Source: Arcobacter sp. (GTDB lineage: Bacteria > Campylobacterota > Campylobacteria > Campylobacterales > Arcobacteraceae). From it: DNA of 11,003 nt. The notes beneath the pieces were generated by a model. The model was given only the letters and a program-made list of their open reading frames with translations, was not told the origin of the DNA and did not search any database. The position numbers and the translations under genes were made by a program. The stretch is from contig CBFIGT010000074.1 in assembly GCA_965662175.1 (NCBI GenBank), positions 1-11,003 of the forward strand, read 5' to 3'. Shown here piece after piece: positions 5,414-9,690 of the stretch. The stretch's first letter is position 1. Each line of letters opens with the position of its first letter.

Positions 5414-6121
5414 ATGATGAGTGATTTAATTACAAGAGTTTTATTAGTAGAAGATGAAGAGGATGCAAGAGAAATACTTGAGTTTTATCTTGATACAATA
5501 TTTGATGAGGTACAAATAGCAAGGGATGGACAAGAGGGTATTGATTTTTATAAAAAAGCCTATGAAGAAAACAAAGCCTTTGATTTAGTTTTGACAGATA
5601 TAAAAATGCCAAATGTAGATGGCCTAAGCATGATAGAAAAAATCACACAGATAAATGAAAATCAAAAATTCATAATAGTATCAGCATACAAAGATGAAGA
5701 GTATCTTTTTAAATCAATAAATCTAAATGTAGTAAGTTATTTTGTAAAACCATTGGAAGTAAAAAATATAATGGAACTACTAAAAAAAGTAAAAGCAAAA
5801 GTTTTAGAAGATAAATCAAGTAGTGAAAAGATTGAAGAGATAATAAAATTAAATGAAAACTATACATACAACACAAAAACAAACTTGCTTTATAATGATG
5901 AGGTTTTAGTTGATTTATCAAAAAAAGAGATTTTACTAATACAAGCTTTACTTACAAATATAAAAGAGATAAAAACAAAAGAGTATCTAAAAAAATTCAT
6001 TTGGGAAAACAAAGAGACCTCCGATGCAACACTACGAACAGTAATAAAAAGAGTAAAAGATAAAATAGCAAATAACGACTTCATAGTTTCAAAAAAAGGA
6101 CTTGGATATATAGTTGAATAA
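5414..6121 (+). CDS. OmpR/PhoB-family response regulator (receiver + winged helix)
   Basis: LLVEDE, DLVLTDIKMPNVDG (phosphoacceptor Asp), SA, KP. C-terminal LRTVIKRVKDK...SKKGLGY. Starts 7 bp after the kinase stop. Confidence 0.95.
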   Translation: MMSDLITRVLLVEDEEDAREILEFYLDTIFDEVQIARDGQEGIDFYKKAYEENKAFDLVLTDIKMPNVDGLSMIEKITQINENQKFIIVSAYKDEEYLFKSINLNVVSYFVKPLEVKNIMELLKKVKAKVLEDKSSSEKIEEIIKLNENYTYNTKTNLLYNDEVLVDLSKKEILLIQALLTNIKEIKTKEYLKKFIWENKETSDATLRTVIKRVKDKIANNDFIVSKKGLGYIVE

Positions 6122-6155
6122 AATATAAAACAAAAAATCATCATATCCCCACACC

Positions 6156-6188
6156 TTTCATTCTCATCGTCCCCGATGGGAATGCATA
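6156..6188 (-). repeat. REP-like palindrome copy B (ATCG/CGAT variant)
   Basis: Plus strand TTTCATTCTCATCGTCCCCGATGGGAATGCATA. Stem CATTCTCATCG / CGATGGGAATG (10/11, one G-T), loop TCCC. Reverse complement begins TATGCATTCCC. Confidence 0.85.
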
Positions 6189-6227
6189 CATAAACAAATA
6201 CAATTTCAAATCACATAAAATAATTAG

Positions 6228-6256
6228 TTGACAATATGTACCAAAAAAGGTACAAT
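6228..6256 (+). promoter_or_regulatory. Sigma70 promoter with overlapping palindromic operator for TA module 1
   Basis: TTGACA (6228-6233), 17 bp, TACAAT (6251-6256). Inverted repeat TGTACC-N6-GGTACA (6237-6254). Confidence 0.85.
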
Positions 6257-6261
6257 AAAAA

Positions 6262-6603
6262 ATGAAAAAAATACCTGCACTTTTTTATAAAAATTCAAAT
6301 GATAAAAAGCCAGTTAGAGATTGGTTATTAGAATTGTCAGAAAATGATAGAAAAATAATAGGACAAGATATTGCAACAGTAGAGTATGCTTATCCTGTTG
6401 GAATGCCAACTTGTAGATCTCTTGGAAATAAACTTGAAGAAGTGAGGAGTGATATTTCTGATAAAAGAATAGCTAGAGTGATTTTTTCTATAAAGTGTGG
6501 CTATATAATTTTGTTACATGGATTTATAAAAAAAACGCAAAAAACACCAAAAAATGAAATCGATATTGCACTAAAAAGATTGAAGGAAATAGAATGCGAA
6601 TAA
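6262..6603 (+). CDS. Type II toxin, RelE/ParE superfamily (Gp49/DUF891, HigB-like), toxin-first
   Basis: 113 aa: FYKNSNDKKPVRDWL, PVGMPTCRSLGNKLEEVRS, RIARVIF, ILLHGFIKKTQKTPKNEIDIALKRLK. Confidence 0.9.
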   Translation: MKKIPALFYKNSNDKKPVRDWLLELSENDRKIIGQDIATVEYAYPVGMPTCRSLGNKLEEVRSDISDKRIARVIFSIKCGYIILLHGFIKKTQKTPKNEIDIALKRLKEIECE

Positions 6604-6878
6604 AACAAAATATGAAAAGTGATTTTGATGAATTCTTACAAGATGAGGGAGTTTTTGTTGAAACCGAATCACTTGCAATTAAAAGAGTAATTGCTTATCA
6701 AATAGAACAAGAGATGAAAAAGCAAAATATAAATAAATTAAAGATGGCAAAACTAATGCATACAAGTAGAAGTTCAGTTGATAGATTATTAGACCCTATG
6801 AATAAATCTCTTACAATATCAACACTTGAATCTGCAATTCAAGCTTTAGGTAAAAAATTAAATATTTCAATTTCTTAA
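6594..6878 (+). CDS. XRE-family HTH antitoxin (HigA-like), partner of the upstream toxin
   Basis: 94 aa, overlaps the toxin stop, SD AAGGA upstream. SDFDEFLQDEG...AIKRVIAYQI...MAKLMHTSRSSVDRLLDP...TISTLESAIQALGKKL. Confidence 0.85.
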   Translation: MRIKQNMKSDFDEFLQDEGVFVETESLAIKRVIAYQIEQEMKKQNINKLKMAKLMHTSRSSVDRLLDPMNKSLTISTLESAIQALGKKLNISIS

Positions 6879-6891
6879 AGTATATAAAATC

Positions 6892-6983
6892 TCTCGTTCC
6901 CATCGTCCCGAGTCTATAAAATAACCCAAACCAATATCTTGTGATTTTATTATTTTCCCAGACTCTGGATCTTTGGAACGAGA
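6892..6983. repeat. Decayed doublet of REP-like palindromes (copy C 6892-6910, half; copy D 6951-6983, degenerate)
   Basis: C: TCTCGTTCCCATCGTCCCG, the left half of the B-type element. D: TATTTTCCCAGACTCTGGATCTTTGGAACGAGA. 6892-6914 and 6961-6983 are inverted to each other (18/23 by hand alignment). Confidence 0.7.
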
Positions 6984-7126
6984 TAAAAAAATTCATTTGG
7001 GAAAATAAAGAGACCTCCGATGCAACACTACGAACAGTAATAAAAAGAGTAAAAGATAAAATAGCAAATAACGACTTCATAGTTTCGAAAAAAGGGTTGG
7101 GGTATTTGATTGAGAGTGGTAATTAA
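6984..7126 (+). pseudogene. Orphan duplicate of the response regulator 3' end (direct repeat of 5988-6118) with an alternative C-terminus
   Basis: 6984-7086 matches 5988-6090 at 102/103 nt. It then diverges but encodes SKKGLGYLIESGN* versus SKKGLGYIVE*. No credible start of its own. Confidence 0.9.
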
Positions 7127-7196: not shown

Positions 7197-7225
7197 TTGA
7201 CAAAACGTACGTTATTTAGTACAAT
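7197..7225 (+). promoter_or_regulatory. Sigma70 promoter with YefM-type operator for TA module 2
   Basis: TTGACA (7197-7202), 17 bp, TACAAT (7220-7225). Palindrome AACGTACGTT (7204-7213) and a second GTAC at 7219-7222, 12 bp apart. Confidence 0.85.
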
Positions 7226-7252: not shown

Positions 7253-7498
7253 ATGACAAGAGTCATGTCAGTAAGTCAAGTTAGAAAAGATATTTACAAT
7301 GTAATGGATGAGACAGCACAAACTCATGAGCCGGTACTTATTACTGGGAAAAGAAACAATGTAGTTATGCTTTCTCAAGAAGACTGGAATGCGATAGAAG
7401 AGACACTATATTTAAACTCTATACCTAACATGGCATCTTCAATTCAAGAGTCAATGATTGCAGATGACAGTGAGTTTAGTGAAGATATTGAATGGTAG
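7253..7498 (+). CDS. yefM: Phd/YefM-family antitoxin
   Basis: 81 aa: SQVRKDIYNVMDETAQTHEPVLITGKRNNVVMLSQEDWNAIEETLYLNSIP; acidic tail. Overlaps the toxin start. Confidence 0.9.
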   Translation: MTRVMSVSQVRKDIYNVMDETAQTHEPVLITGKRNNVVMLSQEDWNAIEETLYLNSIPNMASSIQESMIADDSEFSEDIEW

Positions 7499-7761
7499 AG
7501 TATAAAATACTTTACTCAAAATTAGCACTGAAAGATGCTAAAAAGTTAACAAGTGCAAATTTAGATAAAAAAGCTAAAGAACTTATTGAAATCATAAAAA
7601 AAGACCCATTCCAAAATCCACCTCCCTATGAAAAATTAGTTGGTAATTTAAATGGCTCATACTCAAGAAGAATAAATATTCAACATAGACTAGTTTATGA
7701 AGTTAGAGAAGCTGATAAAGTAATAAGAATTTCTAGAATGTGGTCTCATTATGGAGAATAA
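7492..7761 (+). CDS. yoeB: Txe/YoeB-family ribosome-dependent mRNase toxin
   Basis: 89 aa, basic: DPFQNPPPYEKLVGNLNGSYSRRINIQHRLVYEV...MWSHY, with the YoeB catalytic E/R/H/Y pattern. Confidence 0.92.
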   Translation: MVEYKILYSKLALKDAKKLTSANLDKKAKELIEIIKKDPFQNPPPYEKLVGNLNGSYSRRINIQHRLVYEVREADKVIRISRMWSHYGE

Positions 7762-7897: not shown

Positions 7898-7906
7898 CTC
7901 GTTCCC
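7898..7906 (-). repeat. Terminal remnant of the REP-like palindrome (copy E)
   Basis: CTCGTTCCC, identical to 6893-6901 and the reverse complement of the GGGAACGAG end. Only 9 bp, but GC-rich and located at a gene breakpoint. Confidence 0.55.
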
Positions 7907-8136
7907 TTAGTTTTGAAGATGTTATTTTAAGTATTGAAGATGGGAATTTATTAGATGATATAGAACATCCAAATAAAGATAAATATCCAAATCAAAATAT
8001 TTTTATAATATTAGTTAAAATTAAAGATTATGTATATTTAGTACCATATGTTGAAGATAATACTTCAATATTTTTAAAAACGATTATACCCTTAAGACAG
8101 ATGAATAAAAAATATAATAAAGGAGTTTCAAAATGA
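7906..8136 (+). pseudogene. 5'-truncated BrnT-like (RelE-fold) type II toxin, absent from the ORF track
   Basis: Translates LSFEDVILSIEDGNLLDDIEHPNKDKYPNQNIFIILVKIKDYVYLVPYVEDNTSIFLKTIIPLRQMNKKYNKGVSK*. In-frame TGA at 7888-7890 and no ATG/GTG/TTG before 8101. The usual N-terminal W..EKN..L...RG segment is missing. Stop overlaps the next ATG (ATGA 8133-8136). Confidence 0.8.
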
Positions 8137-8399
8137 AAAATTTAGATAAATTTGAACAAGATATTTTAAATAGTGTTGAAAGTGGTGAATGGAAAAGTAA
8201 AAATGATAATGAAAATAGATTAAAAGAGCTGCAATCATATATAAAAAATCAAAAGAAAAAAGCTATTTCAATAAGGGTAAATGAAAATGATATTTATGAA
8301 TTAAAGAAAAAAGCTTTAGAGAATTCTATTCCATATCAAAATATTATTCAAATGTTAATACATCAATTTGCAAATAATAAAATTAAATTAGATATGTAA
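8133..8399 (+). CDS. CopG/RHH-type (BrnA-like) antitoxin
   Basis: 88 aa: LDKFEQDILNSVESGEW...KKAISIRVNENDIYELKKKALENSIPYQNIIQMLIHQF. SD AAGGAG at 8120-8125; coupled to the toxin remnant. Confidence 0.8.
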   Translation: MKNLDKFEQDILNSVESGEWKSKNDNENRLKELQSYIKNQKKKAISIRVNENDIYELKKKALENSIPYQNIIQMLIHQFANNKIKLDM

Positions 8400-8418: not shown

Positions 8419-8518
8419 TCTCATCCCATAGTCCCAGATGGGGAATGCATACCTAAACTAACACAACTCTAAACCTCTTTTTAAATATGCATTTCAAAGC
8501 ACCAGCTTTGGAATGAGA
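8419..8518. repeat. Head-to-head doublet of REP-like palindromes (copy F 8419-8451, copy G 8486-8518; 34-bp spacer)
   Basis: F: TCTCATCCCATAGTCCCAGATGGGGAATGCATA (B-type). G: TATGCATTTCAAAGCACCAGCTTTGGAATGAGA (A-type; stem CATTTCAAAGC / GCTTTGGAATG, 10/11). Confidence 0.85.
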
Positions 8519-8607
8519 GGAATAAAGTTTCAAAATAAAAGGTTTTGTTTTATTGGTTTGAATATATAAATCCCTTAAAATAGGGTTTTATGTACAAATT
8601 TATAAAT

Positions 8608-8651
8608 TTGAAACAATTTTGAAACAATTTTGGATTGTTTTATGTTATACT
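8608..8651 (+). promoter_or_regulatory. Tandem 11-bp direct repeat over the -35 region plus extended -10 for the TRAP operon
   Basis: TTGAAACAATT twice (8608-8618, 8619-8629). TGnTATACT at 8643-8651. Confidence 0.7.
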
Positions 8652-8679: not shown

Positions 8680-9690
8680 ATGTCTAAATTATCAATCTTA
8701 AAAAAACTGTTAGCTACATCTGTAATAGCAACAGCAATGTTTACAAGTGCAAGTGCAGAAACAAAATATGTAATTGCAACAGCAAGTACTGGTGGTACTT
8801 ATTATCCAGTTGGTGTTGGGATTGCTACAATCGCTTCAATCAAATTAGCAAAAGAGCATAAAACTACTTTTTCAGCAATTACAAGTGCGGGAAGTAATGA
8901 AAATGTTGATATGCTTGATAAGGGTGAAGTAAACTTTGCTATTTTACAAGGTTTATTTGGTTCTATGGCTTGGCAAGGAAAAGATAAATATGAGGGAAAT
9001 GCTAAGAAAAATCTTAGATCAATCTCTATGTTATGGCAAAATGTTGAGCAATTTACTATTAAAAGTGAATATGCAAAAACTGGAAATATTAAAGATATAA
9101 AAAATCTTTATGGTGAGAGATTCTCTATTGGTGGAAGAAGCTCAGGTTCTAGAGTTTCATCTGAAACAATTCTTAGCTCACTTGGAATTGATTATAATAA
9201 AATGGATTTACAATACTTAGGTTATAGTCCAAGTTCAACTGCTCTTCAAGATGGAAAAGTAGAGGGTATGACAACTCCATCAGGTCCTCCAACATCAGCT
9301 GTAACTAATGCTTTTGCTTCAATTGGGGCTGATAAAATTAAAGTATTAGATTTTACAAAAGAGGATTTAGCTGCTATTAATGCAAACTATCCTGTATGGA
9401 CTCCATTTACAATCAAAGCAGGAACTTATCCTGGTCAAACAAAAGATATTAATACTATCGCACAACCAAACTTATTAGTTGTAACTGAAGATACACCTGA
9501 AGAGACTGTTTATTTATTAACTAAAACTATTTATGAAAATTTACCGTTTTTAAACTCAGTTCATAAAGCTACAAAAGCTATGTCTTTACAAAAAGCAATT
9601 GATGGTTTACCAATGCCTCTACACCCAGGTGCTGCAAAATTCTATAAAGAGCAAGGTATAAATATTCCTGCATCTTTAATCGCTAACTAA
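8680..9690 (+). CDS. TAXI-family TRAP transporter solute-binding protein
   Basis: ATG 8680 preceded by AGGAG. Signal peptide MSKLSILKKLLATSVIATAMFTSASA; IATASTGGTYYPVG, SAGSNEN, SIGGRSSGS, PLHPGAAKFYKE. The ORF-track TTG start at 8635 is less likely. Confidence 0.93.
   Translation: MSKLSILKKLLATSVIATAMFTSASAETKYVIATASTGGTYYPVGVGIATIASIKLAKEHKTTFSAITSAGSNENVDMLDKGEVNFAILQGLFGSMAWQGKDKYEGNAKKNLRSISMLWQNVEQFTIKSEYAKTGNIKDIKNLYGERFSIGGRSSGSRVSSETILSSLGIDYNKMDLQYLGYSPSSTALQDGKVEGMTTPSGPPTSAVTNAFASIGADKIKVLDFTKEDLAAINANYPVWTPFTIKAGTYPGQTKDINTIAQPNLLVVTEDTPEETVYLLTKTIYENLPFLNSVHKATKAMSLQKAIDGLPMPLHPGAAKFYKEQGINIPASLIAN

Follow-up and report, generated by a model that had tools for sequence, protein, structure and literature searches.

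The locus and its duplicated gene end

The window analysed here, a stretch of 11,003 nucleotides from Arcobacter sp., is the whole of contig CBFIGT010000074.1 (C74) in an assembly of 2.6 Mb (249 contigs, 94% complete, 27.8% G+C), and our subject is a duplicated regulator gene end in it that begins at the foot of a repetitive extragenic palindromic (REP) sequence. Its genes are, in order, a PAS sensor kinase, an OmpR-type regulator (5414-6121), three type II toxin-antitoxin (TA) pairs, a TAXI TRAP binding protein and a DctM permease. It had been predicted from the letters alone that a 996-bp unit was integrated through the 3' end of the regulator gene, with its junction exactly at a palindrome terminus. 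The features on which this original prediction turns are the following.

5414..6121, + strand: OmpR/PhoB-type response regulator, intact (Response_reg and Trans_reg_C domains), C-terminus SKKGLGYIVE*; left flank of the hotspot
5966..5975, + strand: GAGATAAAAA microhomology, the same 10-mer as at 6980-6989 (1/662 positions)
5988..6121, + strand: copy 1 of the gene end, a 103-nt anchor and an A-rich IVE* tail with the GTTTCAA box retained
6159..6189, + strand: single REP (repeat B) with a degenerate outer end, 25 bits
6892..6983, no strand: degenerate REP doublet (repeats C/D), one 92-nt hairpin whose inner GTAT/GTAG feet are lost
6984..7126, + strand: copy 2, the displaced gene end, with a G-rich LIESGN* tail and without the GTTTCAA box

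The direct repeat consists of 6984-7114, which duplicates the 131 bp at 5988-6118 with an offset of 996; the direct anchor repeats bracket the 996-nt unit. The copies differ at relative positions 23, 104, 113, 114, 116, 119, 123, 125, 126 and 131, that is, at one position in the first 103 nt and at nine in the last 28 (Fisher p=2.5e-6). In both, the first seven codons of the tail encode SKKGLGY, followed by IVE* in one and LIESGN* in the other. Sequence comparison thus reproduced the repeat, its offset, the split of the differences and the two endings as they had been described. The absence of integrase and transposase genes from the unit was likewise borne out, as it encodes only a Gp49/HigB-like toxin and an HTH_37 antitoxin (TA1). 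A plain tandem duplication followed by decay was rejected because the differences cluster in the tail, SKKGLGY is kept and the second tail is present on an intact allele elsewhere.

The junction lies at a REP end

The outer end of repeat D, GGAACGAG followed by A, is the junction partner of copy 2, which starts 1 nt past this conserved REP octamer. Repeats C/D fold as one imperfect 92-nt hairpin (z -4.3 for one strand and -5.1 for the other; 0/200 shuffles), and copy 2 starts at the hairpin foot, since the last paired base is 6983 and the copy begins at 6984. The junction had therefore been rightly placed at the palindrome terminus. The microhomology pointed out earlier was also found: GAGATAAAAA occurs at 5966-5975, 18 nt before the start of the copy, and at 6980-6989, spanning the junction. 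In a post hoc test, recurrence of GAGA plus the next 6 nt up to 40 nt upstream was seen at 1/662 gene positions, the observed one. The exact break position is uncertain by a few bases because of A-run microhomology.

The palindromes are REPs, which occur singly and as inverted doublets beside TA and other small genes on about eight contigs of this genome. REPIN-like inverted doublets are found on C5, C11, C120 and C150 and, in the window, as C/D and E/F; C/D is rearranged relative to the intact doublets. The tetranucleotide feet are mostly GTAT, also GTAG. The same REP sequence is present across many phyla. Its copy number is low (1-22 per genome), and an Rfam search gave no match. Its cognate REP-associated tyrosine transposase (RAYT) is a 177-aa Y1 protein (NF047646, 102 bits against a cut-off of 80), flanked by the same REPs in several phyla and present in 15/184 family genomes. 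A fixed A|T site at the outer ends of REPs was considered and dropped, as 2/92 copies have it. Elsewhere in this genome, none of 20 local repeats is a stub at a REP end.

Two alleles at an orthologous hotspot

The long-type tail is found on intact genes of relatives. Protein P0003 differs from the window regulator by one residue upstream of the tail and ends in LIERGN*; intact genes of 7/7 other species of the genus end in LIER(G/GN/SY)*, and between them and the TAXI gene lie 2.4-14.4 kb of unrelated cargo. The more distant P0002 ends in IIE*. As predicted, there are two distinct tail alleles, each type being found on intact genes, and the site appears to be an integrase-free hotspot: no integrase was seen in the unit, on the contig or in the seven same-genus intervals, where the starts of open reading frames (ORFs) were read by eye, without a Pfam scan. 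This also led us to discard the G-rich tail as the att site of an integrase island. The sequence 3' of copy 2 resembles post-gene DNA of three genomes (G001, G002 and G007).

Between the regulator and TAXI genes, 13 of 30 scored orthologous sites are empty and 17 hold 0.4-14.4 kb of unrelated cargo. None of the 17 cargo intervals contains a recent second tail copy of at least 50 bp (one 34-nt match was seen, in G074), and the window stub is therefore a rare recent event, in which two alleles of one variable site are stacked in series. A metagenome scan yielded no conspecific locus. At the same hotspot, a second non-coding repeat family, hundreds of nt long and often inverted, separates the cargo genes of G002-G007 (L034-L039).

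The junction in reads

In a 355-nt Logan contig from run X4, possibly the source sample, 6732-7086 is reproduced without a difference or a gap, and 6983|6984 is bridged by 252 and 103 nt. The junction is thus present in reads. The X4 contig ends at 7086, one base before the tails diverge, and a contig of run X2 ends at the matching place in copy 1; the TA1 and TA2 pieces are identical in all four runs compared (four studies, depth 3-5). An assembler chimera of two strains might be suspected in a 249-contig assembly, the more so as no contig spanning the whole stretch was among the pieces listed (32 of 116). It is nevertheless unlikely, because a read-derived contig crosses the junction without a difference.

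Near-identical pieces of the stretch occur at low depth in runs X1-X24 from unrelated habitats (20 rows, 14 studies, of which four runs were compared). Possibly this reflects a widespread clone or a shared contaminant.

Recurrence in other Campylobacterales

Around Campylobacterales REP matches we picked 99 regions from those listed (up to 11 kb each, 897,769 nt together) and recorded direct repeats of at least 50 bp and at least 85% identity that contain no REP. There are 24 such repeats in 16 regions, and in 5/16 a repeat boundary lies 1-3 nt past the REP octamer. The join lies 1 nt past GGAACNAR in the window and at the following distances in the other five.

L331: 3 nt; end of an aldo/keto reductase gene, 127-bp stub
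L398: 1 nt; end of an ATPase gene, 144-bp stub
L423: 2 nt; end of a YaaA gene, 80-bp stub
L394: 2 nt; non-coding, before a phosphoglucomutase gene, 56-bp stub
L329: 2 nt; gene boundary, 107-bp stub of which both ends are novel

With REP ends shuffled, a mean of 0.18 cases was obtained over all non-coding DNA and of 0.37 near repeats, and 0/20,000 shuffles reached five, for a 0-3 nt window chosen after the cases had been seen and for regions that were picked by us and include kin that are not independent. The first 40 regions yielded two of the cases, the next 59 the other three. Three further loci were left out of the count: L367 (inner REP end, att-like) and L421 (another palindromic element, 2 nt), both judged by eye, and L388, which overlaps L331. 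The join type is recurrent and real, and the claim of a palindrome-terminus junction extends to five other genomes.

It could still be argued that an ordinary homology-facilitated illegitimate join fell on a palindrome by luck, as REPs and scars both gather in variable regions. This explanation, together with the assembler chimera, is in our view very unlikely: even the stricter null, confined to non-coding DNA near repeats, gives 0.37 against five observed, and L331 lies within a 2.74-Mb contig.

The spacing of the junction is constant from the end of the REP sequence, whether the hairpin is long or short. By contrast, the target dinucleotides at the six junctions (C|T, T|A, G|A, T|G, A|A and A|A) are not conserved. 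C|T is found in the window only, and as a RAYT signature it was discarded (1/6). A-run microhomology permits A|A or A|T at 5/6 junctions, these being the commonest steps in such genomes. Three of the other junction REPs score 14-17 bits only. At L423, the new last codons of the intact gene derive from REP-doublet DNA, and the native stop and terminator are displaced.

L331 repeats the whole architecture of the window. Its 127-bp stub has 0 differences in 85 nt, then 12/42, and the other tail at its end. An intact protein that is nearly identical, P0035, carries the displaced tail, and the cluster's two other full-length members have related LL-type tails. The anchor is identical at 80/85 positions to the species with the displaced tail and at 69-74/85 to two species whose tail (40/42) now sits on the gene. 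Because the gene body clusters with lineages that have the displaced tail, this tail is the resident one, and both anchor copies look resident. The predicted polarity, with the new tail on the intact gene and the old one downstream, is thus supported at L331.

How the join may have arisen

On balance, we think it probable that incoming DNA paired with the resident gene through gene-end homology while its REP-terminated end was joined into that gene about 130 bases upstream, a circular form of the donor being included in this explanation. The incoming DNA would have comprised the new gene tail, a TA pair and a REP doublet, and would have come from another strain, probably by natural transformation; ComEC and DprA are encoded in this genome, and a member of the family is naturally transformable (PMC8308473). 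The REP end may have supplied a free 3' end, made either by a RAYT cut in the donor or an ancestor or by host nucleases stopping near the hairpin. This 3' end would then have annealed to a few matching bases (GAGA/TAAAAA) near the paired region; in the window, where the GAGATAAAAA match lies 18 nt upstream, this would require a short slip between A runs. The outcome would be a second copy of the anchor and a restored gene, with TA2, TA3 and the old tail moved downstream rather than replaced. Toxin addiction and the shortness of the anchor may slow the collapse of the product. It is likely that REP ends in this way let incoming DNA be added beside old cargo without an integrase.

All the models share one novel join at the REP end and one homologous exchange. 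The original prediction had favoured a circle that recombined Campbell-style through the anchor. The anchor repeats do bracket the unit, as such an event requires, but a circle or Campbell integration does not follow from this, since a linear donor, or a REP insertion that is later rescued, gives the same product. A linear intermediate with duplication of recipient DNA is moderately favoured over a circle on account of the L331 anchors: the two copies are identical (0/85), while species with the incoming tail match at 69-74/85, which fits recipient-DNA duplication better than a circle from a diverged donor. As to what made the end, the constant spacing from the REP sequence speaks for RAYT. 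Host nucleases are suggested by the unconserved dinucleotides, by the degenerate junction REPs and by the absence of RAYT from this genome and from 3/5 other junction genomes.

A more specific version assigns both cuts to RAYT: a donor RAYT would cut at C|T (5987|5988) and just past the REP and close a 996-nt circle, which would enter by one crossover in the 103-nt anchor. The copy does start at the T of a C|T step (2.8% of gene positions), and the L331 junction has the RAYT gene 4 kb away. TnpA-REP is able to join that T to whatever 3'-OH attacks it (PMC8266576), it cuts more than 400 nt from the REP, and capture of flanking genes has been proposed (PMC3333891). Single-crossover circles gave duplications of 109-950 bp in E. 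coli (PMC3240628), and the constant spacing again fits. On the other hand, the target dinucleotides vary, no RAYT is at hand in the genomes just mentioned, REP D lacks its tetranucleotide foot, three other junction REPs score poorly, and the 10-nt microhomology would have to be a coincidence. We regard this version as unlikely; it is a sub-case of the favoured explanation, and whatever weight it has is already contained there.

In the main rival explanation, a REP doublet first entered a long-tail regulator gene, after which a donor bringing TA1, a REP doublet of its own and the short tail recombined twice, in the gene upstream and in the REP doublet. The gene would be restored and its broken half left downstream, with no circle and no special end-joining. 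We hold this sequence of events to be possible but doubtful. It has the merit of accounting for the position of the REP without special chemistry, for the 1-3 nt spacing and for the unconserved dinucleotides, and selection would come from the repair of a broken gene. REPs do enter genes, as shown at L424, where one adds 15 codons in frame to an XseA-like gene, REP ends abut truncated genes at C11:35614 and L322, and C/D is rearranged as a hybrid might be. However, a frame-breaking REP with both gene halves was found in 0/161 REP clusters, the cases with matches on both sides being in-frame or self-matches. Unless the donor belonged to the same species, donor-type sequence would also be expected in the anchor of copy 1, whereas at L331 the two copies do not differ and look resident. 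Survivorship has to be invoked for the stub range of 56-183 nt, and rescue does not explain the non-coding L394.

Besides the after-the-fact choices in the null comparison and the simplicity of insertion and rescue, several observations weigh against joining of a REP-terminated end as we propose it. At L372, L414 and L314, stubs lie away from REP ends, and L367 resembles an att-type duplication. The geometry of L329 is different, both stub ends being novel, and L394 lies in non-coding DNA. No gene stub abuts a REP end in 92 REP loci, mostly from outside the Campylobacterota (flanks up to 3 kb; 80/127 stretches were taken into this cross-phylum screen). In a Methylobacter record (L093:2364-3061), two copies of the 5' end of ispD (161 bp, 91%) flank a REP pair, and the junction is 233 nt from the REP. 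No REP was found within 1.5 kb of TA1 homologues at nine loci, and TA1 is therefore not a fixed REP-bounded cassette. For the single alleles, only proteins were recovered and DNA of neither. No intermediate has been seen, in that the other joints to be sought in reads, of the circle and of the collapsed allele (the empty site), were not among the pieces listed from four low-depth runs, in which contigs cannot show absence. Finally, as regards a role for RAYT, the 177-aa protein was not found in this 94%-complete assembly, where the best match (25%) is another Y1 protein on C164.

An older gene-end relic and an operator-like box

Further traces of the gene end lie at the far end of the cargo.

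8419..8517, no strand: REP doublet E/F, its outer end 8 nt before the tail relic
8526..8571, + strand: relic of the ancestral regulator end, with the GTTTCAA box; older DISPLACEMENT (score 36, 0/2000 matched windows)
8609..8630, + strand: 11-nt direct repeat, TGAAACAATTT twice, a putative regulator binding site
8680..9690, + strand: TAXI-family TRAP solute-binding gene; right flank of the hotspot

The relic aligns with the tail of copy 1 better than 2000/2000 matched genome windows. With copy 1, copy 2 and the relic, the window holds three versions of the regulator gene end. The relic begins 8 nt past REP doublet E/F, too far, and is too old, to be counted as a junction.

In 13/13 empty sites the codons V-S-K spell GTTTCAA, the inverted half-site of the TAXI promoter repeat, and the distance between the two is 81-83 nt in 12/13 and 74 in one. 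In cargo sites, the box is kept in 4/17 intact tails (Fisher p=2e-5) and at the far cargo end in 15/17, 72-82 nt ahead of the repeat. These counts leave out G122, which has no tail motif, and L048, whose promoter is out of range. The window has it in copy 1, lacks it in copy 2 and has it again at 8527-8533, 82 nt before the repeat. GTTTCAA is a likely operator half-site within the last codons, whose release would let the tail drift G-rich. Such a box, kept at the far cargo end, would explain the drift of gene tails once cargo is present, and its loss may do so more simply than an att site. Across several genera, G-rich third positions in the tail track the presence of cargo.

Toxin-antitoxin cargo and other REP sites

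The cargo genes of the window and their putative promoters are listed below.

6228..6256, + strand: sigma-70-like promoter of TA1, 11/12 matches (consensus match alone)
6262..6603, + strand: TA1 toxin, Gp49/DUF891 (RelE/HigB-like), by domain search
6594..6878, + strand: TA1 antitoxin, HTH_37, by domain search
7197..7225, + strand: sigma-70-like promoter of TA2, 11/12 matches
7253..7761, + strand: TA2, Phd/YefM antitoxin (7253-7498) and Txe/YoeB toxin (7492-7761)
7898..8399, + strand: TA3, a toxin without its first ~20 codons, then a CopG-type antitoxin (8133-8399)

The TA1 toxin is presumably a HigB; viral contigs searched for TA1 gave distant toxin matches only. The TA3 toxin is 88% identical to a 100-aa homologue, starting at residue 21 of the latter, and is preceded by a 9-nt REP-end fragment (7898-7906). 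In G030, this hotspot holds a full homologue of the toxin (7898-8136 in the window), encoded on the other strand.

Elsewhere in this genome, REP-doublet arrays alternate with TA pairs or small genes (C120:1516-4768, C150:3908-4560, C5:27902-29316, C149, C4 and C11); they resemble integrase-less cassette arrays. A single REP at 356-387 of the window, after an ORF at 46-339, marks another variable site at the start of the contig. At C11:35480-35710, a nucleotidyltransferase-like ORF is followed by a gene that passes into a REP doublet and lacks its second half. In other genomes, REPs lie in frame within long ORFs, at L424 (2203-2234, the 15-codon insertion in the XseA-like gene), L407, L409, L417 and L422.

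Some duplications and repeats are of other kinds. At L367:2834-5001, next to guaA, two copies of the last 83 bp of selO enclose a 2-kb element that carries a replication-like gene; the arrangement is att-like, with no integrase seen. On C2, an 88-bp internal piece of a protease-like gene is repeated across a cargo block (36969-37056 and 42010-42097, offset 5041), with no REP. Finally, C66:11745-12350 carries a CRISPR-like array of ~36-nt repeats that begin GTTTCAAACTA, with a spacing of ~71 nt.

Relation to known systems

Some integrative elements regenerate the gene end that they enter: the gene is restored with a replacement tail and the old tail is displaced. Here, unlike in such elements, no integrase was seen in the unit, on the contig or in the seven same-genus intervals, and stub start, stub length and junction site differ at every locus, with no fixed att core. 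As for an integron array, the contig's 14 proteins include no integrase Pfam and there is no Rfam match, no dedicated attC model having been run. We found no description of the combination of REP end and stub in the literature, in which subscription journals were little covered. A 1990 EMBO J paper reportedly placed REP sequences at the join points of Salmonella duplications, which may bear on novelty.

With REP/REPIN-RAYT systems as they are portrayed in the relevant passages of four papers (PMC3333891, PMC8266576, PMC6006769 and PMC3733652), the present elements share tetranucleotide-footed palindromes, inverted doublets and, in other genomes, a REP-flanked Y1 HUH gene. They differ in that the foot is mostly GTAT and not GTAG, in the 1-22 copies per genome and in the lack of RAYT from this assembly; moreover, one REP end here marks joins between two alleles of a neighbouring gene. 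According to two of them (PMC3333891, PMC8266576), RAYT cleaves at C|T, accepts any 3'-OH for joining and acts over 400 nt, and the capture of genes beside the REP has been proposed.

Vibrio cholerae type VI secretion arrays and Rhs loci (PMC5361080) also gain a module through a conserved anchor and one illegitimate end, the old one being pushed downstream without an integrase. The displacement model, in the passages that set it out, removes the old effector and names no end sequence, whereas in the present case no loss is shown, the anchor is there twice and a REP forms the illegitimate end. In homology-facilitated illegitimate recombination, a homologous anchor at one end and a microhomology join at the other are expected, and both are found here, but the deletion of recipient DNA described as diagnostic (PMC3240628) is replaced by a duplication of 131 bp. 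Campbell integration of a partly deleted circle, treated in the same report (PMC3240628), duplicated anchors of 109-950 bp, the same size class as our stubs; that circle was a laboratory plasmid, and the passages on it report no palindrome-defined end. Finally, integrase-free hotspots of horizontal transfer (PMC5635113) have variable cargo between two conserved genes, no mobility protein and a tail that travels with the cargo. There, as far as the account goes, double crossover replaces the cargo, whereas here cargo is stacked and a stub is left. Further literature for comparison is given by PMC5581495 and PMC2568036.

What we describe is a new form of homology-anchored hotspot turnover that works like known displacement processes. 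It offers growth of a hotspot by addition rather than replacement and allows a contribution of REP ends to gene acquisition to be tested. What REPs and domesticated transposases do for the cell is an open question, and many transfer hotspots are without an integrase (PMC5635113). The signature, that is, a REP end, 1-3 bases and a stub of the neighbouring gene with the tail of another allele, is a countable genomic marker, open to direct assay, that links the two questions. As a tentative idea, less probable than not in our judgement, REP and RAYT might act as a one-ended integrase, RAYT providing incoming or excised single strands with a defined REP end and joining it into the chromosome, and host recombination fixing the other end in a neighbouring core gene. 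If this were true, REP-ended cassettes could be added at a hotspot, the gene regenerated and TA or defence cargo stacked, much as in an integron but without attI or integrase, and RAYT would have a concrete function at the level of the host.

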